A stretch of DNA of 46,879 nucleotides from Rhodothermales bacterium (lineage in GTDB: Bacteria > Bacteroidota > Rhodothermia > Rhodothermales > VXPQ01), in assembly GCA_040904565.1 (NCBI GenBank), contig JBBDTI010000025.1, positions 1-46,879 of the forward strand, given 5' to 3'. How positions within the stretch are numbered: the stretch's first letter is position 1; the number at the start of each line of letters is the position of its first letter. The notes under the pieces were generated by a model. That model saw only the letters and a program-made list of their open reading frames with translations. It was not told the DNA's origin and did not search any database. Of the stretch, positions 224 to 42,836 are shown piece by piece. A program made the translations under genes and the position numbers.

Positions 224-261
224 GAGAATCCGAAATTAGTGCGTCCATAAAGGGAGGTCGA

Positions 262-1680: not shown

Positions 1681-1691
1681 GAGTGGTCTCG

Positions 1692-2611: not shown

Positions 2612-2623
2612 GAGTCAATCGGG

Positions 2624-3784: not shown

Positions 3785-3788
3785 CGAA

Positions 3789-4382
3789 TTAAGAGCCGAG
3801 GGCGACGGCGGCAGCGAGCAGGCCAAGGGCCCCGATTCGTGCCAGCATGCCCGGCCTGAAGAACCGACGATGGATACCGCTGCGACGATACTCGATTTCC
3901 GCGTTGGCGATGTCGGGGGAGAGGATCGTGTTGTTCGATCGCACGTCGATCGGGCGCACGATGCCGGAGATGCGAAGCAGGTGCGTCTCGCCGTTCACGT
4001 TGAGTTTTCTTTCCCCTTCGATAAAGAGGTTGCCACCCTCATCGACCTGCACCACACGCGTCGTGACCGTGCCGTTGAGCAGATCTTCCTGGGAGGACCG
4101 GTTGTTGCTCTGAGCGGCCTTATTAAACGATGCGTCGGCCGAGAATATACCGGAGATCGTGCCTCCACCGACGTCGCCGCTTCCGCCGAGAGCGGAGTTC
4201 GCGGCGTTGCTCCAGGCGCTCTGGCGCTGCGCGCTCGTGCGCTCTACGAGCACGACGGTAAGGAGATCTCCCGCGTTGGCGGCCTTGGGATCCGCATACA
4301 TGGATCGCTGCGCCTGGGCCGGAATCACGGCTCCGACGAGCAGCAGTGTGATGATTGCCGCTCGGAGGGGTAAAGTCTGCAT
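3789..4382 (-). CDS. flgH: Flagellar L-ring protein FlgH (atypical: no lipobox Cys)
   Basis: GDLLTVVLVE, GNLFIEGERKLNVN, SGIVRPIDV and NTILSPDIANAEIEY motifs; located between flgA and flgI. Confidence 0.93.
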   Translation of the reverse strand: MQTLPLRAAIITLLLVGAVIPAQAQRSMYADPKAANAGDLLTVVLVERTSAQRQSAWSNAANSALGGSGDVGGGTISGIFSADASFNKAAQSNNRSSQEDLLNGTVTTRVVQVDEGGNLFIEGERKLNVNGETHLLRISGIVRPIDVRSNNTILSPDIANAEIEYRRSGIHRRFFRPGMLARIGALGLLAAAVALGS

Positions 4383-4414
4383 GGGGTTTCGAAAGCTGTA
4401 TGTGTGGAAAGGTA

Positions 4415-5164
4415 TCAAAGTGTTTCGATCCATTCGGCCTCGGCACGGCCGGTCAGGCGCGCCTTGTAGGTGGATTGCGTGGACTCGTTGTAGAGTCGTA
4501 CGACGTCGCCGACGACGCCGGGCCGGCGTGCGCGGCAGGTCATCGTGAGGTGGATGGGGCCGCGTCGATAAGTGAGCGTGACCTGCTCGCCCGTGTCGAC
4601 GGCGAGGGGTGGTCGGAGATCACCGTCTCTCAGTATGTCGCCGGACGTGATGCGCTTGACGGCATAGATCGCTTCGTCATCGCGGAGCTGCTCGAGGTTA
4701 CGGCGATTCAGAGGGCGGCCCCGGAACGTGGTGACGTCGATCCACGCCGTACCGATATCGGAAGCGGCAACCCGATCGCCTGCCGAGAGATCGCTGCGCG
4801 CGACGGCAATGGAATCGAAATGGGTCACGTAGAGGACGGCCCATCCGGCATTGGTCGAGCCCGATCCCGTGTCGGTATGCAGCCGTGCCTGCGTGTGCCC
4901 TCGGGGCACGCCGTCGTCCGACGTGATGTCGAGCCGCAGTGGGGCCTCCGGGCCCAGCGACGTGTTGAGGCGAACGACCCGCACGCGCAGCCGGTCGACG
5001 TGGTCCGGGAAGCGAACGGCGAGGTATGCCTCTGCAGCTGTTTGGACGCGTTCAGTGATACGATCGTCGTCGGCCGGACCGGTATTGAGGGCGCCGTCCG
5101 CGGAGGCACGCACGGTCATCCCGGCGAGCAACACGATCATCGCTATGTATGGGACAGGCCTCAT
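4415..5164 (-). CDS. flgA: Flagellar P-ring formation chaperone FlgA
   Basis: Signal peptide, SAF-like region (VARSDLSAGD) and C-terminal GDVVRLYN motif; position in flgG-flgA-flgH. Confidence 0.88.
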   Translation of the reverse strand: MRPVPYIAMIVLLAGMTVRASADGALNTGPADDDRITERVQTAAEAYLAVRFPDHVDRLRVRVVRLNTSLGPEAPLRLDITSDDGVPRGHTQARLHTDTGSGSTNAGWAVLYVTHFDSIAVARSDLSAGDRVAASDIGTAWIDVTTFRGRPLNRRNLEQLRDDEAIYAVKRITSGDILRDGDLRPPLAVDTGEQVTLTYRRGPIHLTMTCRARRPGVVGDVVRLYNESTQSTYKARLTGRAEAEWIETL

Positions 5165-5953
5165 CTATCGCTTGACGTTGTTGGCTACCTGGAGCATCTC
5201 TTCGCTGGTCGTCACCATCTTCGAATTGATCTCGTAGGCGCGCTGGGCCGTGATGAGGTTGACCATCTCCTGCACGACTTCGACGTTCGAGACCTCCAGA
5301 TACCCCTGGCGAATGACTCCGAGGCCGTCGCGGCCGGGCGTGGCTATCGCCGGCTCTCCGCTCGCCTGTGTCGCGGAGTATAGATTGCCGCCCTCGGCCA
5401 TGAGACCCGACGGATTGGAAAAGCGAGCGAGCTCGATCTGACCGATTTCGGTATGGTCGGCCTCGCCGTTGAAACGGACCTTCACCACGCCGTCCTGGCT
5501 GATGTGAACCTCCGTCGCGTCCATGGGAATGCTGACGTCCGGCTCGAGCTGGAGCCCCGTCTGCGTCATCAGGTAACCGTCGTCGCTGATGGTCAACGAA
5601 CCGTCACGGGAATAGGAGACCGTGCCGTCGGGCATGCGCACCTGAAAAAATCCGTCGCCGTTTATGGCGAGGTCGAAGGAGTTTCCGGTTTGCTCGAGTC
5701 CGCCCTGCGTGAAGTTGCGCATCGTGGCGACCGGGGCTGCGCCGTGTCCGATCTGGAGCGTGGCGGGAGCGGGGCCGCCTTCGCCTTCCGCCTGGCCGTG
5801 AGCCTGCACGTTCTGGTACAGCAGGTCCTGAAAGATGACGTTGGAGCGCTTGTAGCCCGTCGTGTTCGCGTTGGCCAGGTTGTGCGCGATGTTGTCAACC
5901 CCGGTCTGCTGTGCCTTCATGCCCAGTGCCGCGGTTCGGAGTGCTCGTAGCAT
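5165..5953 (-). CDS. flgG: Flagellar basal-body distal rod protein FlgG
   Basis: NLANANTTGYK, FQDLLYQ, DLAINGDGFFQV and EMVNLITAQRAYEINSK motifs. Confidence 0.97.
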   Translation of the reverse strand: MLRALRTAALGMKAQQTGVDNIAHNLANANTTGYKRSNVIFQDLLYQNVQAHGQAEGEGGPAPATLQIGHGAAPVATMRNFTQGGLEQTGNSFDLAINGDGFFQVRMPDGTVSYSRDGSLTISDDGYLMTQTGLQLEPDVSIPMDATEVHISQDGVVKVRFNGEADHTEIGQIELARFSNPSGLMAEGGNLYSATQASGEPAIATPGRDGLGVIRQGYLEVSNVEVVQEMVNLITAQRAYEINSKMVTTSEEMLQVANNVKR

Positions 5954-6000
5954 GTGTGATGTCTCTTTTTCGTCGTCAGAAGGTCGGGCGGGATACGATG

Positions 6001-6723
6001 CTAGAATTTGCCCAGCTCACGCGTTACGTGACCGAGTATCTGGTCGTGTGTGCTGAGTACCTTTTGCTGCGATTCGAATTGCCTGAAATGCGCGATCATC
6101 TCGGTCATCTCTCTGATCGGATCGACGTTGCTCGTCTCGATGAACCCCTGTCGCACGGACGGTTGTTCGACTTCTAGTGGCTCGGCGCCGTCCGCCGTGA
6201 AGGCCGCTCCATCGACGCGGGTGAGCGCCATCGGATTCTCGAACCGTACGAGCCGAAGCGTTCCGACCGGCTGGTCGTCAGCCCGGATCGTGCCGTCGGC
6301 CTGGATCGCGATCGTGGCAGCGTCGCGCGGAATTTGTATCGGGCCGTTCAAGCCTTCGACGAGCTGGCCGCCCGGACTCCGAAGCATCCCCTGATCGTCC
6401 TGCGTGAAGCGCCCGGCACGCGTATAGCGCTCGGGGCCGCCCTCCTGATCGGTCAATACGAAGAACCCATCGTTCTCGATGGCGACGTCGAGCGGACCTC
6501 CAGTGGCTTCGAACGCTCCCTGCTCGAGGGACGCCCACTGCTCGGTACGTCGGTCGCTCTGCGGTCCACCTTCTACGTCGAGATATTCTTCGAGCGTAGC
6601 CGTGAACGTCCGATCTTGCTTGTAGCCGATCGTGTTCGCATTGGCGAGATTGTTGGCCGTCCGCTCCTGCTCTCGGATCATCGAGGTCATGGAGCGAAAC
6701 GCGTTTTGAAGCCGTAGCAGCAT
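6001..6723 (-). CDS. flgF: Flagellar basal-body rod protein FlgF
   Basis: ANNLANANTIGYK, DVAIENDGFF, YTRAGRF and ETSNVDPIREM motifs. Start at MLLRLQ (6723); first gene of the operon. Confidence 0.9.
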   Translation of the reverse strand: MLLRLQNAFRSMTSMIREQERTANNLANANTIGYKQDRTFTATLEEYLDVEGGPQSDRRTEQWASLEQGAFEATGGPLDVAIENDGFFVLTDQEGGPERYTRAGRFTQDDQGMLRSPGGQLVEGLNGPIQIPRDAATIAIQADGTIRADDQPVGTLRLVRFENPMALTRVDGAAFTADGAEPLEVEQPSVRQGFIETSNVDPIREMTEMIAHFRQFESQQKVLSTHDQILGHVTRELGKF

Positions 6724-6763
6724 GGGAATCGAATCGAATGGATTGAACTCGAACACCAGCTCG

Positions 6764-6780
6764 AACAAACGGCACGCCAA
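6764..6780 (-). promoter_or_regulatory. Putative sigma-54 (-24/-12) promoter of the flgF operon
   Basis: Minus strand TTGGCGTG-CCGT-TTGTT (consensus TGGCACG-N4-TTGC), about 40 bp upstream of the flgF ATG. Confidence 0.55.
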
Positions 6781-6982
6781 CTTGGGAACGGTAGGGAGGG
6801 TGTCCAGCGAGGCCGTGCGCGAAGCACGTTCAGGGGCAGGAATTTCCTGGAATTCGCGGCAGATCTTGCCAGCGGGGCGACCCTGGCGTCGCCGTGCGAG
6901 ATCGGCTCGTAACGGGACGCCGTCTATCGGCGGCGACGGGTGGCATCCGAACCAAGTCGACCCGCCGCACGTGTGAGAGGCC

Positions 6983-7855
6983 ATGCAAGTAACGAGCCGA
7001 ACGACGCAACTCTATCACGCGACGCGCGCCGTCCTCATCGGAGGCGGGGTAGGCGTCGTGTCCGAGATCGCGACGAGCGTAGGATGGTATCCTGGCCTGG
7101 CCGTCTTTGTGATCGTGCTCGCGCTGGGTCTTCGCCGTTCCATCCGGCGTGCCCGGGCCGTGCGGCGTCCCCTGACGGGCTCCGTGCGCTCCTGGCTGGT
7201 GGACCGATTTCCCTCCTACGACTGGGTCGATGCGGATCGGTTTGAACGCGATCTCAAGATCGTACTGGACGAGTGGATTTTCGAAGGCGTTGGAGGGGTG
7301 GAGGTGACGGACGAGGCGAAGGCAGGTGTTGCGGCAGGCGCGGCGCTGCTGCTGAACGGACGGCCGAACTGGGAGCTCCCATATCGGCAGACCGTGCTCT
7401 TCTATCCCGATCGGTTCGATAACGACTATCTTTCCGGAGACTCGGGCGAATTCGACGGCATGGCGCACCAGCAGGGTCCGGTCATCCTGTCGTCGGTGGC
7501 CGTGGATGAAAGCTGGGCGTATCCGGAGGATGGAAGCAACGTCGTCCTCCACGAACTGGCCCACCTGCTCGATTATGAGAATGCTTTCGCGGACGGCGTG
7601 CCGTCTCTCGTGGATCCTGGTTCGGAAGTAGCGTGGCGAGAACTCGTGAAGAAGGAGATACGGCGCGTGCGCATCGGACGATCAATGCTCCGGCGATACG
7701 CCGCGACGAATCCTGCCGAGCTGTTCGCCGTGTCCGTCGAGAATTTCTTCGAGCGGCCTGAGGCGATGGCGACCGGGCATCCCGAGCTGTTTGGCGCGCT
7801 GAAGAGCCTCTTCAATCTGGATCCCGCCGGCACGTCCCAACCCAATTCAGAATGA
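6983..7855 (+). CDS. Zinc-dependent peptidase, MtfA/M90 family, with N-terminal hydrophobic segments
   Basis: DGSNVVLHELAHLLD (HEXXH) and YAATNPAELFAVSVENFFERP motifs typical of MtfA. Start uncertain. Confidence 0.85.
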   Translation: MQVTSRTTQLYHATRAVLIGGGVGVVSEIATSVGWYPGLAVFVIVLALGLRRSIRRARAVRRPLTGSVRSWLVDRFPSYDWVDADRFERDLKIVLDEWIFEGVGGVEVTDEAKAGVAAGAALLLNGRPNWELPYRQTVLFYPDRFDNDYLSGDSGEFDGMAHQQGPVILSSVAVDESWAYPEDGSNVVLHELAHLLDYENAFADGVPSLVDPGSEVAWRELVKKEIRRVRIGRSMLRRYAATNPAELFAVSVENFFERPEAMATGHPELFGALKSLFNLDPAGTSQPNSE

Positions 7856-8712: not shown

Positions 8713-9972
8713 ATGAGCGATAGTCCACACGTACGCCGGATCAAGAAAGGAGAAGACCTTTTCCTGGCCGGCGATCACGCCGCTGCCCTGGACGTTTTCG
8801 AGGCCGTACTTGATGAGGTGCCCGATCATGTCGGTGCGCTCAACGATGCAGCCCTCGCTGCGGCCGAGACGGGCGACGTGGTCAAAGCGGTGCGCTACTT
8901 TGAGCGCGTTCTGGAGCTCGACTCGAGTCAGGAAAACGCGTTCTATAATTTCATCGACCTTCTTGTTCAGGAAGATGCGGCCGATCTCGCCCGGGACGTC
9001 GTTCGGACATACCGATCGGACATACCGGCATCCAGCGAGCTCACGAAGTACGAATCTGCGCTCGGGGTGCTGCCTGATGGCGCGGCGCGCGGAACGGCGG
9101 TGACGGACGTATCCGTGAAGAGCAACCTCGAACCGTCGGGTGACAGGCGCCACGTTATCATCGTAGCGCAGCCGCGAAGCGGCACGACGATTCTGTGGAA
9201 AACGCTCCGTCAGGACCGGCGCCTGGTATGCTTCGACGAGCCGTTTCGACCGCATTTGCGACGATACGTGCTCCAGGAAAGCGACGATAAGAAACAGACG
9301 ATGGGAGAGTATCTCGCCCGCCCCGATCTGATAGAGTCACACTGGAGCACGCTCCAGCCGTTCGAGGAGTTCGATCCGAATCTTGTGGGGCACCAGCGCA
9401 CCTACCTTCAAACGCTTGCTGCGCAGGGTGAGCACGTATGTATGGACTTCGTACGGTGCAGCGCTCATATCGCCGCGCTTCGCCGAGCCGTCCCCGACGC
9501 CTTAATCGTGCATCTGGTCCGTGATCCCCGGGCGTGGGTGACCAGCCATCTCAGACCGTACGGGCGCTGGATGCCCGGGCTGCCCCAAGCTTTTTTCACG
9601 CACGAGGGGAGTTTTGATTTCTGGAGGCGGCAGCAGGCCGCTCAAGTTTTGGGCGCGAAGGGATATGCCCACGAGCAGCTCCTGCAGGTCTGGGATCGTC
9701 TGGTGGCGCTGGCCGAGACGGCTCGCCCGGATCTGACGATCCGCTTCGAGCATTTCGCACTACAACCCGATGACGTGTTGCAGGTGATCTACGAAAGGAT
9801 GAACCTCGACTACCCGTCTCTGGACACCTCGATCGTTCGTAAGCCGAATCCGCCGTTTGCGTTCGATGATGCCCGCTGGGAGCCGGCACTGGCACGATGC
9901 CTCAGTCCGGCTAACCACACGTTTCTGTTCGACTACGAGTCCTGTACGCCGGCGGGGTCGGTCGCAGCGTAG
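8713..9972 (+). CDS. TPR-domain sulfotransferase
   Basis: N-terminal TPR pair; PAPS 5'-binding loop QPRSGTTIL; 3'-phosphate-binding motif HLVRDPRAWVTS; IRFE motif. Confidence 0.85.
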   Translation: MSDSPHVRRIKKGEDLFLAGDHAAALDVFEAVLDEVPDHVGALNDAALAAAETGDVVKAVRYFERVLELDSSQENAFYNFIDLLVQEDAADLARDVVRTYRSDIPASSELTKYESALGVLPDGAARGTAVTDVSVKSNLEPSGDRRHVIIVAQPRSGTTILWKTLRQDRRLVCFDEPFRPHLRRYVLQESDDKKQTMGEYLARPDLIESHWSTLQPFEEFDPNLVGHQRTYLQTLAAQGEHVCMDFVRCSAHIAALRRAVPDALIVHLVRDPRAWVTSHLRPYGRWMPGLPQAFFTHEGSFDFWRRQQAAQVLGAKGYAHEQLLQVWDRLVALAETARPDLTIRFEHFALQPDDVLQVIYERMNLDYPSLDTSIVRKPNPPFAFDDARWEPALARCLSPANHTFLFDYESCTPAGSVAA

Positions 9973-9991
9973 CGGCGTTTAAGCCCCCATC

Positions 9992-10011
9992 CTCGCGGCG
10001 ATCGTCGCGAG
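9992..10011. terminator. Hairpin between convergent genes (possible terminator)
   Basis: CTCGCGGC-GATC-GTCGCGAG stem with one G-U pair, between stops at 9972 and 10022. No U-tract. Confidence 0.35.
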
Positions 10012-10021
10012 CCCACATCCT

Positions 10022-13000
10022 TCAGGCGGCATCGCGCCGCCGGCTCGCAAATCGATCCGCGATCGATTCCGCGGATGCACTAGCCGGTGAAGCCATGCTG
10101 CCGGACATACTTGTTATAGCGAGCTGTGACGCCGGCCGCGACGTCACCACGTTCTCCACGAGTGCATCGATTCGTTCGAGCTGTGTGGCGGCCGTCAGGT
10201 CGTTATCGGTCAGAAGGGACCGATAACGGTGCGGTTCATAGGGAGAATCGTCCAGCATACGGTCGAGAAATTCGTTGAGATTCCTGAAGATGAACTCCTC
10301 CGGCCAGATCTCGCGGCTCTCGCGCCACGCATGGATCACGGGCTTCAGCCCTGCAGCCATTCCGTTTCCGACCGCATAGTGGAAGGATTCTTCGAGCGAA
10401 AAGCTGAGAATATGTGATTTGTCAACGAGCCATGCATCCAGGTCGTCGATCCATTCCTCGACGATCGTGATGTGGGAATGGAGATCCAGCTCATCCATCA
10501 TCGTCTCGACGGCCATTTTGTAGCGTAAGTCCTGCCAGTCGCCCCGAATGAACAGCCGGTATGCCGGGTCCTCGCGCCGCAGTGCGTCGAAAAACTGCAG
10601 AAGCATCGGGAGGCCCTTTCGGTGATTGATGTGACCGAGAAGCAGGAGATTCTTGGTATTCGACTTGTCGGGAGGAATCGCGAATCGATCCACGGTCACG
10701 CCGTTTCGAATGACGACCTGATCGACATCCGCTGCCGGAACGAGACGGTTGAACAGGTCGCGCTTGTGCTCGGCGACGAAGACGAGTCGGTCGACGACGG
10801 ACCAGTTGATATCACGGATATACGGCGTAAACACTTCGAAGCCGTGCAGTCGGCAGATGACGGATCTCGACGAGAGGGCGTCGATCTCGTGGGTCACCTT
10901 CGCCGTAAGTGGACTCGCCCACTCCAGCCAGACGACGTCCGCTTCGTCTATGGCGCGGCGGGCCGTGGTCAGGTCCGTCGTCTTGAGATACGTGGCGCTG
11001 CACTTCGACCGCCAGTGCTCGACCACGTGATCGAGATGTCCGCCGGTGCTGATGCCGTCCTGCTCGAGAAACAGAATCCTGCTCGGCGTGCTGTGGTCGG
11101 GCGTGCTGTGGGCGGGCGTGATGCGAGACCCGGCCTCGTCGCGCTCCGGAGGTCGACTCGAACTCTGTGGGCGCTCGTAGCCGAAGAACCGGATCTGATC
11201 GCGGCATTCCCGCTCCAGTATGGCGTGTTGCTCGTCGGACCAATCTGAAGGCAGGGGGAATTCTCCCTGTTTCTGAGCATTCAATTTCTTGTTCAGGATG
11301 TCCGCGGCGGCGTCGCGATCGAATCCGTCGAGGCCGAGAACGTCGAACAGGTGCCGGGTTACGTCGGGATCCTCTACGAGGTCCTCGAAGCGGACGATGA
11401 CGTAGCGGTCGTCGGGGAGCCGGTCGATCTCTTCACGAATGCGACGATACGTCTCGTTCCACAGCCAGCACACCTTTTCGAACGGCGTGCGATCCGTCCA
11501 CCCTGCGGCTTCGGCGTGATCCGGCTCGGGGCGCAGTCGCCCGGCGTCCCACGCGTGCCCGCGGTAATACCCGCGCCGCATTCCGGAACGCACGAAGTCC
11601 CACGGATTTCGTACGAGGACGATGAATCGGGCTTCGGCGATATCCTGCCGTATGACGGAGGCGAAGGCGGTCATGTTATGATCCAGCTCGCCGAATACAA
11701 GGCTGTCCTTCCAGGCATCACGCAGGACGTGCCCGCGAGCATTCCAGAAGGTCTTTCGGGCGTCGATATCTTCGTGATAGGCGGCGAGTGTTTCTTCGAC
11801 GAGGTACGGACGAGGGTGGTGGTATACTCTGGCGTTCGCGGCGGTGCCGAGGAGCGCGGACAGCGTCTGGGTGCCGCAGCGCCCGGATGACAGGCAGAAA
11901 AAGGCCTCCCCGGTCGTATCTGAAAGATGGTACCGTCCATAACCGTTCGGCTTCTCCACATCCCGCCAGCGATCGAGATGCTGTGCTACCGAGGCGGCAA
12001 TCCGTTCGTCCAGGCCGGTTGCCAGGGGGGCCGGCAGGTCGTAGACGGCTGCAGACCCCTCCGCTTCATACCCTCCCTCTTCGATCATTGCCGACGTGGG
12101 TAGATAGGCTTTGAGACCGTTCGAATATCCCAGGATGGCCGACCAGTCCGGAAGGTCGGTGTGCCGGGACACGTATCGGGCGAGCTCCCCGACGACTTCA
12201 CCGGGGCACGTGATGAAACACGTGCCCTCGCCTAACGCGAGAAATTGAACCTCGATCGATAAATCCCTCGCCCGCTCGTCCTCCGGGATGGCGGCCTGCC
12301 GGCCCGCCCACTGCCTGTTCACCAGCGGAACGTCATCACTCTTTGCCATTGCCTCGAGCACCTCCGTTGACGGAGGCGGCTGGAAGTCGAGCCGGATCGT
12401 ATCGGTCCGGGCGAAGATGGGACCGTTTACGGACCGAATGCTTCGTCTGAGGGCGTCCGTAACGGCTCGTCCGAGACATCTTGCGTTCAGGTCGACGCCT
12501 TCCGGCGATGTGGTGAATGACGTTTCTCCGTTTTTTACACGGGTCTGCTTTGCGCTTCCGCCGGCGGCCTGCAAGAACATGACTGTATGTGCCACGTCCG
12601 CCTCGACAAGATGAGCCCGCAGGGAGCCGGGAAAATCCGCGGATATAACCTCCCGGTTTCCCAGCCCGGTTGGATGGCAGCCGTGGGCGACCACGGCGGT
12701 GGTCGATCCGTCGTGAAGATGATCGACGACGAGGATCGGCGTGTCTTCAGCATAGAATCCTTCATCGTTGATGCCGAACTGGATCCGGCCGTCCACTTCG
12801 ACGCGGCGATTGGAACCTATCCTCGCATCCGTGCCGGTTGCATAGATAAAGCACGGGCGGAGCCGCTCGAAGAGCTGCGGCAGCAGCTCGCGTATCGTAG
12901 CGGTGACCTTGTTGGTATACGATGCGTCGAAAGCACCGATGGCCGGCGTGACGTGCCGGCACGTGCCGGGGGCGTAATGGGTGTGCGATGCGTTCAGGAG

Positions 13001-13666
13001 AAGGGCCTCCGGAGGAATGCCCCATTCGCGCGCTGTGCGGCGAACGTGCGCGACCGTTGTGTCGTCGAAGCCGAAGAGATCCGCGCTTACGATAAGGCAC
13101 CGGGAGCCGCACTCGTCTTCGAGTAGAAGGAGCTGAAGGAGAAGGGGCGAATGAACGGCTCGAGCGGTTCGGGGCGGTCCTGTAAATCCCTGCAGGACGG
13201 GTCCATCTTCACCCGGCTGGGGCGTAATATTGACGGAGACCTGTGCGGCCCGGTAGGGGGTGGAAGCCTGCGTCAACCCGCCCAGTACGGCGGCACACCG
13301 CCGATCGTCGGGCGACACCCCGCCGGCGCGCGGTGAGTCGTCGCGCAGTGATTCGGCATGCGATGATTCGTCGCGCAGTGATTCGGCATACGCCTTCACG
13401 TAGTCGTGGATGGCAGGTTCTTTAACCAGCTCCGAGAGATTCTCGATAATGCCCTTGTTGGAAGGATCTAGACGCAGCGCGTGCAGATGAGCGTCGACGC
13501 CTTTCTGTATGTCCCCGGAGTGGAGTGCGGCGATACCGACGTTCGTCAGGACGGAGACGTCTCGTGGATGCTCGGCCAGCAGATCCTCGAAGAGCGTAAG
13601 CGCTTCATCAGGCCTGTCATCCCGGAGCAATTGTTCTCCACGTTGAAGGTGTTCGTGAACGTCCAT
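10022..13666 (-). CDS. Multidomain protein: TPR + neutral/alkaline ceramidase-like amidase + sulfotransferase + GT4 glycosyltransferase (1214 aa)
   Basis: TPR N-terminus; ceramidase-family motifs NASHTHYAPG, GCHPT, ISADFPG, PGE, GYSNG..YLPT..EGGYE; sulfotransferase motifs SGRCGTQTL and LVRNPWDFVRS; GT-B motifs RLHGFE, KG and SLEESFHYAVGNGMAAG. Start placed at MDVHE. Confidence 0.85.
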   Translation of the reverse strand: MDVHEHLQRGEQLLRDDRPDEALTLFEDLLAEHPRDVSVLTNVGIAALHSGDIQKGVDAHLHALRLDPSNKGIIENLSELVKEPAIHDYVKAYAESLRDESSHAESLRDDSPRAGGVSPDDRRCAAVLGGLTQASTPYRAAQVSVNITPQPGEDGPVLQGFTGPPRTARAVHSPLLLQLLLLEDECGSRCLIVSADLFGFDDTTVAHVRRTAREWGIPPEALLLNASHTHYAPGTCRHVTPAIGAFDASYTNKVTATIRELLPQLFERLRPCFIYATGTDARIGSNRRVEVDGRIQFGINDEGFYAEDTPILVVDHLHDGSTTAVVAHGCHPTGLGNREVISADFPGSLRAHLVEADVAHTVMFLQAAGGSAKQTRVKNGETSFTTSPEGVDLNARCLGRAVTDALRRSIRSVNGPIFARTDTIRLDFQPPPSTEVLEAMAKSDDVPLVNRQWAGRQAAIPEDERARDLSIEVQFLALGEGTCFITCPGEVVGELARYVSRHTDLPDWSAILGYSNGLKAYLPTSAMIEEGGYEAEGSAAVYDLPAPLATGLDERIAASVAQHLDRWRDVEKPNGYGRYHLSDTTGEAFFCLSSGRCGTQTLSALLGTAANARVYHHPRPYLVEETLAAYHEDIDARKTFWNARGHVLRDAWKDSLVFGELDHNMTAFASVIRQDIAEARFIVLVRNPWDFVRSGMRRGYYRGHAWDAGRLRPEPDHAEAAGWTDRTPFEKVCWLWNETYRRIREEIDRLPDDRYVIVRFEDLVEDPDVTRHLFDVLGLDGFDRDAAADILNKKLNAQKQGEFPLPSDWSDEQHAILERECRDQIRFFGYERPQSSSRPPERDEAGSRITPAHSTPDHSTPSRILFLEQDGISTGGHLDHVVEHWRSKCSATYLKTTDLTTARRAIDEADVVWLEWASPLTAKVTHEIDALSSRSVICRLHGFEVFTPYIRDINWSVVDRLVFVAEHKRDLFNRLVPAADVDQVVIRNGVTVDRFAIPPDKSNTKNLLLLGHINHRKGLPMLLQFFDALRREDPAYRLFIRGDWQDLRYKMAVETMMDELDLHSHITIVEEWIDDLDAWLVDKSHILSFSLEESFHYAVGNGMAAGLKPVIHAWRESREIWPEEFIFRNLNEFLDRMLDDSPYEPHRYRSLLTDNDLTAATQLERIDALVENVVTSRPASQLAITSMSGSMASPASASAESIADRFASRRRDAA
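13338..13389. repeat. 22-bp direct repeat (30-bp period) in a linker of the fusion gene
   Basis: TCGTCGCGCAGTGATTCGGCAT at 13338-13359 and 13368-13389; encodes AESLRD twice. Confidence 0.85.
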
Positions 13667-14003
13667 CGTCGATGCGATTGTAATTGGGAAGGCCTGGTGT
13701 GTCGTGTGACGGCACAAAAAACATTCCCTGGTGCGAGGTCGGGCCGCGCACGGTGCATCTCGCCATCGGGACGTGCCATCCGACGATCCGTCGAGCAGAG
13801 CTATCTGCGCTCGGCGAGCGTCGCCGCGCCAGGGAAAGGATGGGATCGCCGGATTGGGGCGCGACGACATCGCACGCGAACCGTCGCGCGCGTGGCGTGA
13901 GGCAAGAAAGTATTTCCGGGATGATGCAAGGACTGCCTATGGGACGAAGCCGTCAGCCCGCGTATCAGGCGGGTTCTTGAGAGAAGTTACCTCGGCCTTG
14001 TGT

Positions 14004-14019: not shown

Positions 14020-14117
14020 CCGTCGGCAAGAGAACGCGATCCGTGCCCGGAACCGCCTCGCGAGGCGTACCGCTCGATCGCACCATACGTTCGAGAGTGA
14101 CACCAAAGAGCCTACCC

Positions 14118-15089
14118 ATGGCTGATATTAAAGGAAGCCGCGTGCTCGTTATCGGAGGCGCCGGCTTTATCGGATCTCATATCGTCGATCGATTGCTACG
14201 TGAAGATGTGGGAGAGGTCGTCGTCTTCGACAATTTCTGCAGGGGTTCCAGAGAAAATCTCGCTCAAGCGCTGACGGACGACCGGGTTCGAATTTTTGAA
14301 GCGGGCGGCGACATCACCCGGCCCGACATCCTGCGAGCGGCGGCGGAGGGATGTGACTACGCCTTTCACCTCGCCGCGCTGTGGCTGCTTCAATGCCACG
14401 AATATCCGCGCGCGGCCTTCACCGTCAACGTCGAGGGGACGTTCAACGTCCTCGAGGCGTGCCGCGATGCCGGCATTAAGAAGCTCGTCTATTCTTCGTC
14501 CGCCTCCGTGTATGGGGATGCGCTCGAAACGCCCATGACTGAGGATCACCCGTACAACAATCGCACGTTTTACGGTGCGACCAAGATTGCCGGCGAACAT
14601 ATGTGCCGGGCGTTTAACGAACGATACGGGCTCGATTACGTCGGCCTTCGCTACATGAACGTGTACGGGCCGCGGCAGGATTATAAGGGGGCGTATGTGT
14701 CCGTCATTATGAAAATCCTGGATCGTATCGACGCCGGACTTCCCCCCATCGTCTATGGAGACGGTTCGCAGGCGTACGATTTTATCTATGTGGAGGAAGT
14801 GGCCCGCGCCAATCTGCTCGCCTTGCAGTCCGACGCGACGGACGAATGCTTTAACGTAGGGTGCGGCCGGAGCACGTCCATCAAGGCGCTCTGCGAGCTT
14901 CTCCTGGAGCTGACGGGCAGCACGCTGCCGATCCAGTACGAGCCGGCCGGACAAACCTTCGTGACGCGGCGCGTGGGGTCGACCGAAAAGGCGGAGAGGC
15001 TGCTGGACTTCAATTCAGAGGTAGAACTCGCTGACGGACTGCAGCGCCTCATTCGATGGCGGCGCGCCGATATAGCCCTCGCCGCCTGA
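14118..15089 (+). CDS. NAD-dependent NDP-sugar epimerase/dehydratase (extended SDR)
   Basis: GGAGFIGSH, SSSASVYG, YGATK and RYMNVYGPRQ motifs. Confidence 0.95.
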   Translation: MADIKGSRVLVIGGAGFIGSHIVDRLLREDVGEVVVFDNFCRGSRENLAQALTDDRVRIFEAGGDITRPDILRAAAEGCDYAFHLAALWLLQCHEYPRAAFTVNVEGTFNVLEACRDAGIKKLVYSSSASVYGDALETPMTEDHPYNNRTFYGATKIAGEHMCRAFNERYGLDYVGLRYMNVYGPRQDYKGAYVSVIMKILDRIDAGLPPIVYGDGSQAYDFIYVEEVARANLLALQSDATDECFNVGCGRSTSIKALCELLLELTGSTLPIQYEPAGQTFVTRRVGSTEKAERLLDFNSEVELADGLQRLIRWRRADIALAA

Positions 15090-15112
15090 ATCCAACCAAT
15101 CCACTTCTGACG

Positions 15113-16300
15113 ATGCAAAATATACCCATTACCAGAGTGCTTTTCGACGAGGCGGAAATAGAGGCCGTCCAGGAGCCCCTGCGCAGCGGCTGGATCGTGC
15201 AGGGGCCGTACGTGGCCGAGTTCGAACGTAAGTTCGCCGACTTCGCGGGGTCGAAGCACGCCATCGCAACTACATCTTGCACGACGGCGCTACATCTATC
15301 GCTGGCCGCGGCGGGAATCGGACCGGGCGACGAAGTGATCGTACCCGCGTTCACGTGGGTGGCGACGGCGAACGTCGTCGAGTACATGGGTGCGAAGCCG
15401 GTCTTTTGCGACATCGACCTCGAGACGTTCAATGTGGACGTCGACCTGCTGCCGGACCTGATTACGGATCGGACGCGGGCGATCATACCCGTGCACCTCT
15501 TCGGACTTCCGGCCGACATGTACGCGATACGGCGTCTGGCCAGGTGGCACGACCTCGTCGTCGTAGAAGACGCCGCCTGTGGATTTGGAGCCACGTATGA
15601 AGGCACCCACGTCGGCACGCTCAGTCATTTCGGCTGCTTCAGCTTCCATCCTCGAAAAGCGATCACGACGGGCGAAGGCGGGATGATTCTCACACAGCGC
15701 GACGACGCGGCCGAGCTGTGCCGGACGCTGCGGGATCACGGAGCCAGCAAAACCGACCTGTCGCGACACGCAGGAAGCGGCGGATTCCTGCTACCCGCCT
15801 ACGATCACCTCGGCTACAATTATCGCATGACGGACCTTCAGGGCGCGATAGGGTCCATGCAGATGGATAAGGCCGGCGAAATCCAATCCGCCCGCGTTCA
15901 CCGGGCCGAACGATACGACGACCTGCTCGAGTCCACGTCGTGGCTTCGGACGCCGACCGTTCCCGAAGGCAGCACGCACGCCTACCAGTCGTATGTCTGC
16001 CTTTTCCGACCCGAGCCGGTGTCCACGAAGAACGTCGACCGGCTGCATCAGCGCCGGAACGCGCTGATGGCCGAACTCGAATCGCGCGGCATCGCAACGC
16101 GGCAGGGGACCCACGCCGTCACGTCCCAGGGCTACTATCGACGGAAGTACGGCATCCATCCTGAAGCGTATCCCCAGGCTCTCCTCGCGGAGCGCCTCTC
16201 GCTGACGCTTCCGGTGTATCCGCAGATGACCGACGAAGAACAAGACTACGTGGTGGCCCAGCTTCACCAGGTGTTCGAGTCGTACCGGCGCGCGGCCTGA
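15113..16300 (+). CDS. DegT/DnrJ/EryC1/StrS family PLP-dependent sugar aminotransferase
   Basis: SCTTALHL, PVHLFG, VEDAAC, FSFHPRKAITTGEGG and GYNYRMTD motifs. Confidence 0.96.
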   Translation: MQNIPITRVLFDEAEIEAVQEPLRSGWIVQGPYVAEFERKFADFAGSKHAIATTSCTTALHLSLAAAGIGPGDEVIVPAFTWVATANVVEYMGAKPVFCDIDLETFNVDVDLLPDLITDRTRAIIPVHLFGLPADMYAIRRLARWHDLVVVEDAACGFGATYEGTHVGTLSHFGCFSFHPRKAITTGEGGMILTQRDDAAELCRTLRDHGASKTDLSRHAGSGGFLLPAYDHLGYNYRMTDLQGAIGSMQMDKAGEIQSARVHRAERYDDLLESTSWLRTPTVPEGSTHAYQSYVCLFRPEPVSTKNVDRLHQRRNALMAELESRGIATRQGTHAVTSQGYYRRKYGIHPEAYPQALLAERLSLTLPVYPQMTDEEQDYVVAQLHQVFESYRRAA

Positions 16301-16354
16301 CGGCAAGGACCCACTAATACCGTTATTGCAATCCAAGAACAACGAGAGACTATC

Positions 16355-16846
16355 ATGGAGACGTACGAGCAGCTACTGGATCAGGGTGAACGACTCGTGA
16401 GAAGCGGCGACCAGGTGGCCGGCGTTCGCAAATACGCGCGCGCGGCCGAACTCGACCCCAAGCGAAAGGAGGCTTTCACGAAGCTGGGGCTTGTCTATCG
16501 GGAGTACGGGGACGTCGATAGCGCGATGAACTTCTTTGCTCAGGCGGCGAGCCTCGACGAGAAGGACGCCTTCGTTCGATTCAATCTCGGTCTGATCCAG
16601 TACGGGGAAGGGATGCTGGATAGGGCGCGTGAGACGCTCGAGGAAGCCGTATCGATCGTGCAGACGGGCATTGCCGGTGCACGCGTCGAAGCGGAGGGGC
16701 TGCGGTCCGACAAGCAGGGCATCCTGCTCCACCAGTGTGACGAGTTGGAACAGACGGTCGTTGACGCGCAGGCGCTGCTCGCGCAGATCGCCACGGATCA
16801 GGCGGCGACGCCGGAGTCCGGGTTCGCGAGCGGTCAGGCGGGATAG
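16355..16846 (+). CDS. Standalone tetratricopeptide repeat protein
   Basis: TPR repeats (AAELDPKRKEAFTKLGLVY; AASLDEKDAFVRFNLGLIQY); paralog of 7988..8485. Confidence 0.85.
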   Translation: METYEQLLDQGERLVRSGDQVAGVRKYARAAELDPKRKEAFTKLGLVYREYGDVDSAMNFFAQAASLDEKDAFVRFNLGLIQYGEGMLDRARETLEEAVSIVQTGIAGARVEAEGLRSDKQGILLHQCDELEQTVVDAQALLAQIATDQAATPESGFASGQAG

Positions 16847-16886
16847 CCTGCACGGCTGAGGGTTAGCATAACCACGGGAGAACGCC

Positions 16887-18842
16887 ATGTGCGGTATAGC
16901 AGGCATTATGAACGCGGACGGCCGGCCGATTTCCGGTCCCTTGCTGCGGCGAATGACGAACGCGCTTCGCCATCGGGGACCGGATGGGGAAGGGTACGTC
17001 GTCAGCGGTCGAATCGGACTCGGACATCGACGACTGGCCGTCCTCGATCCCTCGCCGGCGGGTCATCAGCCGATGCAGACGGAAGACGGTCGCTTCGTGA
17101 TCAGCTATAACGGCGAAGTGTATAATTTCCAGAATCTGCGCCTGACGCTGGAGTCGCTCGGCCACGTGTTTCGCTCGAAGACGGACACGGAAGTGGTCCT
17201 ACGGGCATTCCGGGAGTGGGGGCCGGACTGCGTCAAGCGGTTCAACGGCATGTTCGCATTCGCCGTGTGGGATGCCGTGGAACGGCGGCTCGTGCTCGCG
17301 CGGGATCGGTATGGGATCAAGCCGCTCTATTATACCCACTCAGACGGTTCGTTTCTCTTCGGCTCGGAGATCAAGGCGATCCTGGCCCATCCGTCCGTCT
17401 CCGTACGGGTATGCATCGAGGCAATGAACGAGTATTTCTCGTTCCAGAACGTGTTTTCCGACCGGACCCTCTTCGAAGGAATCAGGATGCTTCCCGCGGG
17501 AACGATCATGCTCGTCAGTGCGGACGGAACGGTTCGCAGCGAGCGGTACTGGGATTTCGATTTCAGAGACTCCGATACGTTAACCGAGTCGGAATGCATC
17601 GAAGGATTTCAGTATTACTTCGAGCAGGCCGTCAACCGCCAGCTGGTCGCCGATACGGAGGTGGGCTCATTCCTCAGCGGCGGGATCGACTCCGGATCCA
17701 TCACGTCGGTCGCGTCCAAGAGCTTTGACTTTTTGAAGACCTTCACCTGCGGCTTCGATCTTCGATCCGCCTCAGGGCTCGAGTTGAACTTCGACGAGCG
17801 AGAGCGGGCCGAACATCTATCCTACCTGAACGGCACCGAGCATTACGAGGTCGTGTTGAAAGCCGGCGACATGGAGCGCGTCATGCCGGACCTCATCCGC
17901 CACATGGAGGACCTCCGCGTCGGACAGAGCTATCCCAACTATTACGTCAATCGCCTGGCCGGCAAATTCGTAAAGGTCGCGCTTTCGGGCACCGGAGGAG
18001 ACGAACTCTTCGCCGGATATCCGTGGCGCTACTATCGCGCCGTCGTGAATGCCGATGCCGACCATTACATGGACAAGTACTATCGCTACTGGCAGCGACT
18101 CATCCCGGACCGCATCAAGCCGGACTTTTACCAGCCGGACATCTACCCGGAAGTGTGGAATCACCAGACGAAGGACGTATTCAACCAGGTTATGAACGGC
18201 CGGGCAGAGAATCTGGCGACGCCGGAAGAATACGTCAATCGGTCCCTCTATTTCGAGGCCAAAACCTTCCTGCACGGACTCCTGGTCGTCGAAGACCGGC
18301 TCAGCATGGCGCACGGGCTCGAGGTCCGCGTGCCGTTTCTGGACAACGATCTCGTGGACTTTGCGATGAAGGTGCCCGTCCGGTACAAGCTGCGCGATCT
18401 GCGTGACGTCGTTCGGCTCAATGAAAATGAGCCGGGGCGGAAAACCCAGCAATATTTTTCCCGCACGAACGACGGCAAGCTCCTCCTGAGAAAGGCTCTG
18501 GAACGGTACGTGCCGGCCGAATACGCGCACGGCTGCAAGCAAGGATTCTCGGCGCCGGACGGCAGCTGGCTCAAAGGGGAGAGCATCGATTACGTACGAG
18601 ACCTCCTGTTTGACGACCGGGCTCGCATCTACGATTACATCCAGCCCGAGACGGCGCAGGGGCTCATGCGGGAACACTTTGAAGGTCGCACGAACCGCCG
18701 GCTTCTCATCTGGTCCCTGCTCTGCTTCGAATGGTGGTGCAAGACGTTCATGGAGGACCGGCATGCGCCCGAAAAGGGCCTTCGATCCAACGGCCGCCGT
18801 CAAGAGACTGTCCCCATTCAGACATTGTCCGCAGCAGCATGA
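16887..18842 (+). CDS. asnB: Asparagine synthase (glutamine-hydrolysing)-family amidotransferase, probably acting on a sugar
   Basis: MCGIAG N-terminus, HRGPD, GHRRL, YNGEVYN, LSGGIDS, SGTGGDELFAGY and EVRVPFLD motifs. Confidence 0.95.
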   Translation: MCGIAGIMNADGRPISGPLLRRMTNALRHRGPDGEGYVVSGRIGLGHRRLAVLDPSPAGHQPMQTEDGRFVISYNGEVYNFQNLRLTLESLGHVFRSKTDTEVVLRAFREWGPDCVKRFNGMFAFAVWDAVERRLVLARDRYGIKPLYYTHSDGSFLFGSEIKAILAHPSVSVRVCIEAMNEYFSFQNVFSDRTLFEGIRMLPAGTIMLVSADGTVRSERYWDFDFRDSDTLTESECIEGFQYYFEQAVNRQLVADTEVGSFLSGGIDSGSITSVASKSFDFLKTFTCGFDLRSASGLELNFDERERAEHLSYLNGTEHYEVVLKAGDMERVMPDLIRHMEDLRVGQSYPNYYVNRLAGKFVKVALSGTGGDELFAGYPWRYYRAVVNADADHYMDKYYRYWQRLIPDRIKPDFYQPDIYPEVWNHQTKDVFNQVMNGRAENLATPEEYVNRSLYFEAKTFLHGLLVVEDRLSMAHGLEVRVPFLDNDLVDFAMKVPVRYKLRDLRDVVRLNENEPGRKTQQYFSRTNDGKLLLRKALERYVPAEYAHGCKQGFSAPDGSWLKGESIDYVRDLLFDDRARIYDYIQPETAQGLMREHFEGRTNRRLLIWSLLCFEWWCKTFMEDRHAPEKGLRSNGRRQETVPIQTLSAAA

Positions 18843-19534
18843 ATGACGTTGACGTACAGGCGGTCGTAGACCGGAGACTTGAAGGGCTCGAACGATACGG
18901 GCGGTCTGCCGCCGCACTGGGCGACGGCAAGGGCGGTCGACAGGACGTGCGCTTCGCCGTCTACGCGGAGTACATCCTGGACCATGACGATGCGTCCGTG
19001 CTGGATCTGGGGTGCGGATTTGCCGATCTGTTCGAATATCTACGGCGCCGGGGATGGCGCGGCAGATATAGGGGCGTCGAGATCGTGCCGGAATACGTCG
19101 AGCAGATACGGCGGATCCATCCGGAATTGGAGGTCCTGCAGGGCGACGTCGAGACGATGCTGGAAGACCTGCCGACCCACGATTTCGTCGTTGCGGCGAG
19201 CATCATGAATCTCCGGCTGAAGGCCGGCGAGAATGAAGCCTATATCCGACGCATGATGCGCCGCATGTTCGACCGGGCCGACGTAGCGGCGGGGATGGAC
19301 TTCATGACCACGTATGTGGACTGGCAACATCCGGATGCGTGGCACACGGACCCGGCATGGGCGGTCACCGAAGCGAGTCGCCTGACACGGCGCGTCGTGC
19401 TCCGCGCCGATTTTATGCCCTATGAGTTCGTGCTCATTCTCTTCAAGGATGATCGAGCGTCAGTCCGCAACGTCTACCGGGCGTTCGAGGCACGTTTAGA
19501 CGCGTCGGAGGTCGGAGGCGGGGATGATGCGTGA
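18839..19534 (+). CDS. Class I SAM-dependent methyltransferase
   Basis: SVLDLGCGFAD motif I and YRGVEI motif; ATG overlaps the asnB stop (ATGA). Confidence 0.88.
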   Translation: MNDVDVQAVVDRRLEGLERYGRSAAALGDGKGGRQDVRFAVYAEYILDHDDASVLDLGCGFADLFEYLRRRGWRGRYRGVEIVPEYVEQIRRIHPELEVLQGDVETMLEDLPTHDFVVAASIMNLRLKAGENEAYIRRMMRRMFDRADVAAGMDFMTTYVDWQHPDAWHTDPAWAVTEASRLTRRVVLRADFMPYEFVLILFKDDRASVRNVYRAFEARLDASEVGGGDDA

Positions 19535-20810
19535 CGGGTACCTCGCCGTACTGGGCGGCAACAAGATGGCCTGCCACGGTATCGAACGACTCGAAGCCCT
19601 GGGCTATCGCCTGCTCGTGCTAGACGGCAATCCACAGGCCGCCGCCCGTACGCCCGGACGTCCCTTCCTGGCCGTCGATTTCTCCGACACAAACGCAGCG
19701 CTCCGCGCGCTGGAGCCGTTCGAGCTGGGTGGCATCATGCCGTTGAACGATTTCGCGGTTCGCTCGTCGTCCCGCATCGCAAGAGAGCGTGGACTCCGGG
19801 GATGGACCGAGGAGACGGCGTACCGGTTGACCAATAAGGCGGCCATGCGAGCGGTCTGGCGTGAGGCGAACCTGCCACAGCCGTCCTACTGTTCCGTGTC
19901 CATCGAAGACCTGCTCGCCGGTCAGCATCCCGTATGGGATTCATTCCCATGCATCGTCAAGCCCGCCTTCGCGGGAGGCGCCAGCCGGGGCGTCCACCTC
20001 GTGCACGACTGGGATGAGGCACGCGCCGTCGTCGAAGCCACGCGCGACGTCTACCTGGATGCCGACGTCGTCATCGAAGAATACGTACGCGGCACCGAGC
20101 ATACCCTTGAAGTCGTCGTAAGGGATGGCCGGCCGACGCTCCTCTCCATCTCCGACAAACAGAATTACCCGGGTCACGTCAGCGTCGTCCAGAACCTCTA
20201 CTTTCCCGGCCCGGTCGGGTGGGCCGCGCACGATCGATTATGCGACCTTGTTTTTGCCGCCTGCGGCGCTCTGGGGGTGACCGACGGAGCCTGCCATTTC
20301 GAAGTGCTGCTTACCGAGCACGGCCCGCTCCTTCTAGAGGTGGGCGGACGGCCGGGCGGTGGACTCAACTTCGATCCGATCTGCCGGCTTTCGACGGGCT
20401 TCGACTATCCGAGCCTGCTCGCCTGCATTCTAACCGGAGAATCTCCCCGGTTCGTCCGTCAAGAGCCGTGTCACCTGGCCTGGCACTACTTCGACGGCGG
20501 GGACGGAACGGTCCAGGACATCATAGGAATGGACGAGGTCGATGGGGCCGATGGCGTCGTGGATGTCGAATGCTACGAGCGCGTGGGAGAGCCGCGCCGC
20601 CGCCTCACCGACGACCTTGAACGCCCCGGCTACGTGCTCGTCCGCGCCGACAGCCATGGCGCCGCCCGAACGCTCGCCGCACGGATGTGCGACCGTATAG
20701 AAGTTTTGACCCACGCGCCGACATCGAAGTCGCTCCATACCGAACACCTAGCTACCGCATCACATGAAGATACTGGTTGGTACACACGAGATATGCCGGC
20801 AGGCGTATGA
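19524..20810 (+). CDS. ATP-grasp domain ligase
   Basis: NKAAMR, IVKP..GGASRGV, VIEEYVRG.E, HFEV and LLEVGGRPGG motifs. Confidence 0.88.
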   Translation: MMRDGYLAVLGGNKMACHGIERLEALGYRLLVLDGNPQAAARTPGRPFLAVDFSDTNAALRALEPFELGGIMPLNDFAVRSSSRIARERGLRGWTEETAYRLTNKAAMRAVWREANLPQPSYCSVSIEDLLAGQHPVWDSFPCIVKPAFAGGASRGVHLVHDWDEARAVVEATRDVYLDADVVIEEYVRGTEHTLEVVVRDGRPTLLSISDKQNYPGHVSVVQNLYFPGPVGWAAHDRLCDLVFAACGALGVTDGACHFEVLLTEHGPLLLEVGGRPGGGLNFDPICRLSTGFDYPSLLACILTGESPRFVRQEPCHLAWHYFDGGDGTVQDIIGMDEVDGADGVVDVECYERVGEPRRRLTDDLERPGYVLVRADSHGAARTLAARMCDRIEVLTHAPTSKSLHTEHLATASHEDTGWYTRDMPAGV

Positions 20811-31369: not shown

Positions 31370-31428
31370 GTGGTCAGGTAAGGTTAAACAGGGTAGTTCG
31401 TGTTCGGTGACCGCGGACGAGTGCGCGG

Positions 31429-42834: not shown

Positions 42835-42836
42835 TA

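Follow-up and report, generated by a model that had tools for sequence, protein, structure and literature searches.

A gene joining a ceramidase-fold amidase, a sulfotransferase, and a glycosyltransferase among flagellar and amino-sugar genes of a Rhodothermales bacterium

The window analyzed here is the entire 46,879-bp contig C25 (JBBDTI010000025.1) of a 4.02-Mb, 95-contig Rhodothermales metagenome bin that is 94.9% complete (GCA_040904565.1). Positions 10022..13666 of its minus strand encode a single protein in which a tetratricopeptide-repeat (TPR) module, a ceramidase-like amidase, a sulfotransferase, and a glycosyltransferase (GT) follow one another. This fusion gene is encoded with amino-sugar biosynthesis genes and, in its own lineage, inside a flagellar cluster. 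We propose that its product is a multi-enzyme, soluble and cytoplasmic, that acts in tailoring a glycan with amino sugars, in its own genome most likely a flagellin O-glycan added before export, and we give this proposal roughly an even chance of being correct. The gene is divided as follows, with the basis of each assignment in parentheses.

10022..13666, minus strand: whole gene, TPR, ceramidase-like amidase, sulfotransferase, and GT4-like glycosyltransferase, 1214 aa plus stop codon (open reading frame, ORF; length of cluster representative P0002; Logan contigs over all junctions)
13382..13666, minus strand: N-terminal TPR module, residues 1 to about 95, two or three repeats (Pfam TPR_14/TPR_16; PDB TPR designs, E 3e-16)
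13280..13381, minus strand: low-complexity linker 1, residues about 96-129 (sequence; predicted local distance difference score, pLDDT, <50 at model residues 1-10)
11927..13279, minus strand: predicted neutral-ceramidase-fold metallo-amidase domain, residues about 130-580 (AlphaFold2, Foldseek, VIA, profile alignment to 2ZWS, invariant columns)
11162..11926, minus strand: sulfotransferase domain of the 3'-phosphoadenosine-5'-phosphosulfate (PAPS) type, residues about 581-835, with putative 5'-phosphosulfate-binding (PSB) loop S593-T599, E660, and R686...S694 (Pfam Sulfotransfer_3, structure match, invariants)
11087..11161, minus strand: disordered linker 2, residues 836-860 (pLDDT <50 at model residues 251-275)
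10133..11086, minus strand: GT-B / GT4-like glycosyltransferase domain, residues about 861-1178, with R1016-K1017 and E1092-E1093 (Pfam, Foldseek, invariants)
10025..10132, minus strand: Ser/Ala-rich low-confidence C-terminal tail, residues 1179-1214 (pLDDT <50 at model residues 594-629)

Counted from its first ATG, the open frame covers 10022..13870 and 1282 aa; from the ATG at 13666 it runs for 1214 aa without an internal stop. Because relatives also begin directly with the TPR module, 13666 is the likely start, and P0002, the gene-caller cluster representative, is likewise 1214 aa long and 99% identical to the fusion. An earlier reading of the DNA, which we call the sequence-only reading, had described an uninterrupted 1214-aa ORF, in agreement with this frame and with P0002. 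The motifs it quoted were also all present and in the order given: SHTH (residues 227-230), CHPT (330-333), SADFPG (342-347), and PGE (488-490) in the amidase region, GRCGT (595-599) and LVRNP (684-688) in the sulfotransferase region, and RLHGFE (939-944) and EESFH (1092-1096) in the GT region.

The assembly was checked by placing on 9900-14000 the Logan contigs of three sediment-metagenome runs: X1 and X2, which are possibly the source samples, and X3, from a different sample in the same study. (The conclusion on the assembly draws on none of runs X4, which reaches only 19 of 30 bins, X5, and X6, the last two having small shares.) The contigs aligned with 0 differences, no indels, and no joints. 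Single contigs of X1 (10319-12175) and X2 (9900-12499) bridged both the amidase/sulfotransferase and the sulfotransferase/GT junctions, single contigs of X1 (12146-14000) and X3 (13218-13573) bridged the TPR/amidase junction, and a further X3 contig (11312-12052) aligned without differences. The sequence-only reading had called for a read-level check of this kind, and its outcome, with single contigs from three runs crossing every junction without a difference, establishes that the fusion gene is real and not an assembly chimera.

Three of the four modules were recognized by Pfam. TPR_14 matched residues 5-41 (26 bits, cut-off 23.5), with TPR repeats over residues 5-70; Sulfotransfer_3 scored 47.4 bits on the isolated domain and 41.8 bits within the full-length sequence (cut-off 27); and Glyco_trans_1_4 scored a borderline 27.1 bits in the full protein and 29.2 bits for the domain alone (cut-off 27). 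The middle domain was identified by structure and by the family profile; a phmmer comparison of the whole protein with the PDB gave TPR matches and one weak sulfotransferase match but none for this domain. The four modules named by the sequence-only reading are thus all present. Its low-complexity linkers were found between the TPR and amidase modules (residues about 96-129) and between the sulfotransferase and GT modules (residues 836-860), but the amidase and sulfotransferase abut with no linker. The first of these linkers contains an imperfect tandem peptide repeat, ESLRDES/ESLRDDS, at residues about 94-112. No 19-residue stretch of the protein has a mean hydropathy above 1.28, and its N-terminus is polar, so that no membrane segment or signal peptide is predicted and the protein is expected from its sequence to be soluble and cytoplasmic.

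Residues 125-830 were modeled with AlphaFold2 from an alignment of 30 sequences, with a mean pLDDT of 92.7 and a pTM of 0.86. Foldseek ranked Pseudomonas aeruginosa neutral ceramidase (2zws, E 1.8e-24; 2zxc) and human neutral ceramidase (4wgk, E 2.8e-22) at the top. VIA-align superposed model residues 10-451 on residues 1-492 of the 2ZWS chain (Z 36.6, root-mean-square deviation 3.6, 405 residues) and gave Z 33.7 for 4wgk_A, and the family profile (alignment A1) matched 2ZWS at E 1.5e-13. In the profile alignment, H228, H331, E490, and Y521 fall on H97, H204, E411, and Y448 of 2ZWS, which we take to be its zinc ligands, and H230, R287, and Y533 fall on H99, R160, and Y460, which we take to be catalytic. 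All seven aligned active-site residues are identical to those of 2ZWS; H228, H230, R287, H331, E490, and Y521 are invariant in 30/30 aligned sequences, and Y533 is kept in at least 90%. By this modeling and alignment the middle domain is a predicted neutral-ceramidase-fold zinc amidase with intact ligand and catalytic residues, and the ceramidase-like character assigned to it by the sequence-only reading is upheld.

Compared with neutral ceramidases (PaCD, 2ZWS/2ZXC; human ASAH2, 4WGK; PF04734), the fusion shares the catalytic-domain fold over about 400 aligned residues at only 14-16% identity. The C-terminal beta-sandwich domain of the ceramidases is absent: the alignment ends at residue 492 of the 630-residue chain, and the sulfotransferase, beginning at model residue about 457, occupies its place. 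Unlike neutral ceramidases, the fusion amidase has no predicted signal peptide or membrane segment, is joined to glycan enzymes, and is encoded among sugar and flagellar genes rather than lipid genes. Ceramidases hydrolyze amides in a Zn2+-dependent reaction and have a lipid tunnel of roughly 20 Å (PMC10243590).

For the sulfotransferase domain, the structure matches were TPST1/2 (Z 16.6-17.4, TPST1 highest at 17.4), CurM and OLS (16.4), NDST1 (14.1), and 3-OSTs (13.5-13.9), and the family profile also matched the sulfotransferase entries 4GOX and 4GBM. S593, G595, R596, G598, T599, E660, R686, and S694 are invariant in 30 sequences; S593-T599 presumably forms the 5'-phosphosulfate-binding loop and R686/S694 the 3'-phosphate motif. 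The fold is common to the Sulfotransfer_3 enzymes TPST1/2, CurM, and OLS, and the fusion has an Arg-containing PSB loop, SGRCGT. The acceptors of those enzymes differ (tyrosine; a beta-hydroxyacyl thioester), and the domain studied here is rigidly joined to an amidase. The acceptor could be an amine, a sugar hydroxyl, or a tyrosine; these structural neighbors do not discriminate among the three. A sulfate donor is likely to be at hand, in that APS (adenosine 5'-phosphosulfate) kinase is encoded in the same genome and also lies immediately upstream of the fusion at two (L013, L015) of the 12 fused loci in the Pfam scan.

A second model, of residues 586-1214 (21 sequences, pLDDT 82.2), showed the C-terminal domain to be GT-B, with the GT4 enzymes BshA (3mbo, E 9.5e-11, TMt 0.71), TarM, SdgB, GtfA, and PimA nearest in Foldseek. 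Invariant positions comprise STGGH (873-877), E915, R939, E944, H967-K968, R1016-K1017, and E1092-E1093. The domain shares the GT-B fold with the retaining GT4 enzymes (BshA, 3MBO/6N1X; TarM; SdgB; GtfA; PimA) at 10-17% identity, and like them has the R-K-G motif, presumably of the phosphate-binding type, and the first Glu of the EX7E motif. Unlike them, it is embedded in a four-module protein and departs from EX7E at one position described below.

A search with residues 130-580 returned 168 proteins, and the best 120 of these, 119 relatives and the fusion's own cluster, were analyzed by mapping the query's four modules onto the relatives with phmmer. The middle domain was present in 119/119 listed relatives, and a homologous sulfotransferase followed it directly in 97/119, the two being separated by a median of 1 residue (range -4 to 26). 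Among these 97, 53 have a TPR module, 21 the same GT domain, and 12 all four modules. In other relatives, precomputed Pfam matches place GT2, GSCFA, methyltransferase, hexapeptide-transferase, or FkbM domains where the GT would be, and more distant ceramidase-like relatives are fused to GH5, M23, or alpha/beta-hydrolase domains. The family spans metagenome-assembled genomes (MAGs) of Rhodothermales, Desulfobacterota, Myxococcota, and Planctomycetota. The architecture is therefore recurrent rather than unique, and its constant core is the amidase-sulfotransferase didomain. The sequence-only reading had regarded the four-module arrangement as unusual, a view that these counts do not support; in metagenomes it is already common, although no characterized family member was found in the literature searched. 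In Desulfamplus-type genomes (L022:8894-12301 and L026:8174-12433) the ceramidase-like domain occurs without a sulfotransferase, fused to GSCFA or GT2. The amidase-only locus L026 adjoins a Maf-type gene and has Epim, DegT, and AsnB homologs 62%, 32%, and 59% identical to those of the window.

Three further blocks of the window surround the fusion gene.

17..6984, minus strand: flagellar block, with a flgL fragment at the contig end, flgK, flgN, a flgJ-like rod-binding gene, flgI, flgH, flgA, flgG, and flgF (Pfam)
8713..9972, plus strand: convergent neighbor, TPR plus second Sulfotransfer_3, 419 aa (Pfam, 6.5e-14)
14043..22401, plus strand: divergent amino-sugar/glycan cluster, with an SDR epimerase/dehydratase, DegT aminotransferase, TPR protein, AsnB-like amidotransferase, methyltransferase, ATP-grasp ligase, and a 545-aa Glyco_trans_1_2 protein (Pfam)

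A Flagellin_N-like match at 17-163 (minus strand) indicates that the contig begins inside a flgL-like gene. Between flgF and the fusion lie genes for an M90 peptidase, a TPR protein, and the TPR-Sulfotransfer_3 protein at 8713-9972. The possibility that this last gene duplicates the sulfotransferase of the fusion was ruled out by 22% identity and E 0.014; its enzyme is a second, distant sulfotransferase, and the island thus encodes two of the PAPS type.

Multiple observations connect the fusion with flagellin and with amino-sugar synthesis. We scanned GTDB representative genomes and obtained 57 loci, 21 of them with the fused didomain; Pfam scanning of neighboring genes took in 12 fused and 2 amidase-only loci. 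First, the nearest relative, a Rhodothermales MAG locus (L001) whose modules are 44-68% identical to those of the window, is syntenic, with an FAA hydrolase gene and a gene of unknown function on one side and M90 and flgF/G/A/H/I/J on the other; farther along the same contig (G001:C78) are four flagellin genes and a flgL-like gene. Four flagellins are also encoded elsewhere in the genome of the window; the genes for three stand in tandem on a 6.3-kb contig, which by synteny with the L001 contig probably adjoins the left end of the window. (The tandem genes, of the 279-aa type, are on G000:C48, L059-L061.) Second, at L015 the genes for FlgI, FlgK, and a 1234-aa Flagellin_N protein (4065-7769) lie upstream and two further flagellin genes 8-11 kb downstream; at L019 a Maf-type protein is encoded upstream and a GT41-TPR protein and an 831-aa flagellin are found, the latter about 4.4 kb downstream. 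In two Desulfobacterota loci, flagellin or Maf genes and an APS kinase gene stand next to the fusion. Third, flagellin is encoded in 24/24 carrier genomes tested, and in a 301-genome sample of one phylum, of which 123 genomes have flagellin, all 5 with the full-length fusion have it as well. Finally, DegT and/or SDR homologs flank the fusion in 14/21 fused loci, and the Pfam-scanned neighbors are mainly nucleoside-diphosphate (NDP)-sugar genes (nucleotidyltransferase, 4,6-dehydratase, 3,5-epimerase, and C- and O-methyltransferases), with DegT, ATP-grasp, formyl- and acetyltransferases, and GT2/GT4 also present.

Flagellin genes are frequently numerous in carrier genomes (G012, G014, G021, G024, and those of L015 and L019), with as many as 25 matches in G012, and the flagellin-type frames there can be very long, from 800 to more than 2000 aa. 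Within the flagellin of L019 (17577-20072) is a hexapeptide-repeat match. Of 40 relatives of the window's own genome, one, that of L001, has the full fusion, which is therefore a sporadic gene of island type.

A precedent for cytoplasmic modification of flagellin is FlmG of Caulobacter crescentus, whose N-terminal TPR region binds flagellins and whose C-terminal GT-B domain glycosylates them in the cytoplasm (PMC7591256). The fusion resembles FlmG in having an N-terminal TPR and a C-terminal GT-B domain and in being encoded near flagellar genes, and differs in that FlmG has no amidase or sulfotransferase insert and has a TPR region of about 313 aa, compared with about 95 aa here. The likeness noted here is one of module layout, and the 545-aa Glyco_trans_1_2 protein of the window, which has no similarity to the GT of the fusion, may be a closer analog. 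This protein (20764-22401, plus strand) and a small TPR protein (16355-16846, plus strand) belong to the amino-sugar cluster, and a corresponding pair, a 565-aa TPR protein and a 537-aa Glyco_trans_1_2 protein, is found at the Myxococcales locus L010. The pair in the window might be an FlmG-like flagellin glycosyltransferase split in two genes. Co-folding of the fusion's TPR module (residues 1-125, alignment A3) with a 279-aa flagellin of its own genome scored 0.00, a result that weighs neither way on binding.

By analogy with FlmG, we envision that the TPR module would dock a protein substrate and the GT domain would add a sugar from a nucleotide donor. The amidase could strip an amide-linked N-acyl group off an amino sugar that the neighboring SDR, DegT, AsnB, and ATP-grasp gene products synthesize, and the sulfotransferase might subsequently sulfate the glycan, either on the freed amine, as in N-deacetylase/N-sulfotransferases (NDSTs), or on a hydroxyl. 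An assembly line of this sort had been put forward by the sequence-only reading, whose modules and fold stand but which missed the gene context, where flagellar and amino-sugar genes point to a flagellin glycan.

The linker-less fusion of amidase and sulfotransferase suggests consecutive steps on one site, the logic of an NDST, and NDST-like N-deacylation/N-sulfation is plausible by this analogy. Like the fusion, in which residues 130-580 directly precede 581-835, an NDST carries a metal amidase ahead of a PAPS sulfotransferase in a single polypeptide, and the sulfotransferase folds are common (Z 13.9-14.1). The NDST deacetylase is an Agd3 homolog that folds into a (beta/alpha)7 barrel and carries a His-His-Asp triad (PMC10864358). 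The ceramidase fold of the fusion amidase is distinct from this barrel, as the sequence-only reading had proposed, and any likeness to NDST would consequently be convergent. NDST is also a Golgi enzyme that acts on heparosan chains, whereas the fusion is predicted to be cytoplasmic and is at most a putative N-sulfotransferase. The full form of this idea, that the didomain is a bacterial cytoplasmic N-deacylase/N-sulfotransferase on a neutral-ceramidase fold, convergent with NDST, which makes N-sulfo amino sugars on flagellin or another surface glycan, is a tentative one that we think is probably incorrect in at least some part.

Several results weigh against our interpretation of the protein as a tailor of a flagellin glycan. 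No flagellar gene was found within about 10 kb in 10/12 fused loci scanned with Pfam, and in three Myxococcota-type genomes among the five noted above the nearest flagellin gene on the same contig is about 53 kb away. The carrier genomes are interrelated, so that the 24/24 and 5/5 co-occurrences are not independent events. In the window itself, a Wzx-like flippase (27523-29028) and a GNAT gene (together 27523-29918) lie about 14 kb from the fusion, and a lipid-linked polysaccharide is therefore another possible target. With respect to the modules, Pfam matched residues 130-580 to 0 families even at E<=10, and the domain thus fails the Pfam ceramidase model PF04734; NCBIfam gave no match to it either, and a precomputed PF04734 match exists for 10/102 closer relatives. 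The closest structures to the sulfotransferase module are tyrosylprotein sulfotransferases. GT4 enzymes carry an EX7E motif with two Glu residues. In the fusion, the position of the second, eight residues after E1093, is N1101, and Asn is found there in 21/21 family members, which makes the donor of the GT, or even its activity, uncertain.

The same chemistry could instead act on a lipid-linked or secreted polysaccharide (capsule, O-antigen, or exopolysaccharide), with an N-deacylase/N-sulfotransferase and a GT working on sugar chains as the sequence-only reading proposed. Most related loci have only NDP-sugar genes and GTs, in keeping with the lack of flagellar genes within 10 kb at 10/12 fused loci; the flippase at 27523-29028 and the order of amidase before sulfotransferase within a single chain, which NDST1 also has, fit as well. 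However, no Wzy, Wza, or initiating phosphotransferase gene was seen beside the fusion in the 12 fused loci scanned, TPR modules, which are typical of protein docking, occur in 53/97 amidase-sulfotransferase relatives, and flagellin, Maf, or flg genes lie near the fusion in the window, L001, L015, and L019. We consider a polysaccharide target possible, although on the unlikely side.

A TPR-bound protein might also be the substrate of every domain, with the sulfotransferase sulfating tyrosine in the manner of TPST or RaxST, the GT O-glycosylating the same protein, and the ceramidase-like domain trimming an acyl or peptide amide. In addition to the presence of the TPR module, the best sulfotransferase matches (tyrosylprotein sulfotransferases, Z 16.4-17.4, compared with 14.1 for NDST and 13.9 for 3-OST) and the protein O-GlcNAc transferases SdgB and GtfA among the top GT matches are consistent with such a modifier. 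The differences in Z are small, however, and CurM/OLS (Z 16.4) fall within the TPST range; both tyrosines of the genome's own 279-aa flagellin are outside its Ser/Thr-rich central stretch, as read from sequence; and the DegT/SDR amino-sugar genes at 14/21 loci argue for a sugar substrate. Modification confined to the protein is accordingly improbable.

Every solved member of the fold is a ceramidase, neutral ceramidase can also catalyze the reverse reaction, and sphingolipid producers occur in several host phyla (Myxococcota and Bacteroidota relatives). These facts would suit a lipid pathway, in which the ceramidase-fold domain cleaves, or in reverse makes, a ceramide-like N-acyl lipid and the GT and sulfotransferase build a sulfated glycolipid, an analog of sulfatide. 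Against this, the protein has no predicted membrane segment, the C-terminal domain of ceramidases is missing, and neither the window nor the 14 Pfam-scanned loci (12 fused and 2 amidase-only) showed a gene for sphingolipid synthesis. Furthermore, the fusion of distant ceramidase-like relatives to GH5, M23, and alpha/beta-hydrolase domains indicates that the fold is not tied to ceramide, and we regard a role in lipid metabolism as improbable. An assembly chimera or a decayed, inactive fusion, to which a 95-contig metagenome bin and a GT score of 27.1 against a cut-off of 27 might lend some color, is contradicted by Logan contigs from three runs that cross each junction with 0 differences, by identical domain order in 12 other clusters from several phyla, and by dozens of invariant residues in each module, and is exceedingly improbable.

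If our interpretation of the fusion as a glycan-tailoring enzyme is right, then the neutral-ceramidase fold, whose solved examples are all ceramidases so far, has been put to use in cytoplasmic glycan tailoring and permanently coupled to a sulfotransferase; this would point to sulfated bacterial flagellin or surface glycans. Should the didomain act as an N-deacylase/N-sulfotransferase on a flagellin glycan, flagella coated with sulfated, possibly N-sulfated, sugars would be expected. We found no paper linking the neutral-ceramidase fold to sulfotransferases or glycan tailoring in a search that took in few of the subscription journals, and, in the literature searched, none that speaks of 'sulfated flagellin' or 'flagellin sulfation'. 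Ceramidase, sulfotransferase, and flagellin glycosylation taken together led only to sphingolipid papers without a bearing on the fusion, and flagellin together with a sulfotransferase and a sulfated glycan only to archaeal (Halobacterium) N-glycan sulfation. Expression of active NDST in bacteria is described as a bottleneck for the microbial synthesis of heparin (PMC13353177), and a soluble bacterial N-deacylase/N-sulfotransferase would have practical interest for that purpose. The family is large, with the didomain in 97/119 listed relatives, and characterization of one member would annotate many genes.

Other features of these sequences are recorded here. The homolog of the fusion at L001 (P0003, 1590 aa) has ~430 extra C-terminal residues after the GT domain, for which no Pfam family is listed. 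An 837-aa ORF of the window (41685-44198, plus strand) has DUF4147 and MOFRL domains of the glycerate-kinase type that begin only at residue about 399; its N-terminal ~400 residues have no Pfam match, or its start was miscalled. In the region 29936-33150 (minus strand), hslU (29936-31369) and hslV (32581-33150) flank the gene for a 355-aa NYN-domain protein.

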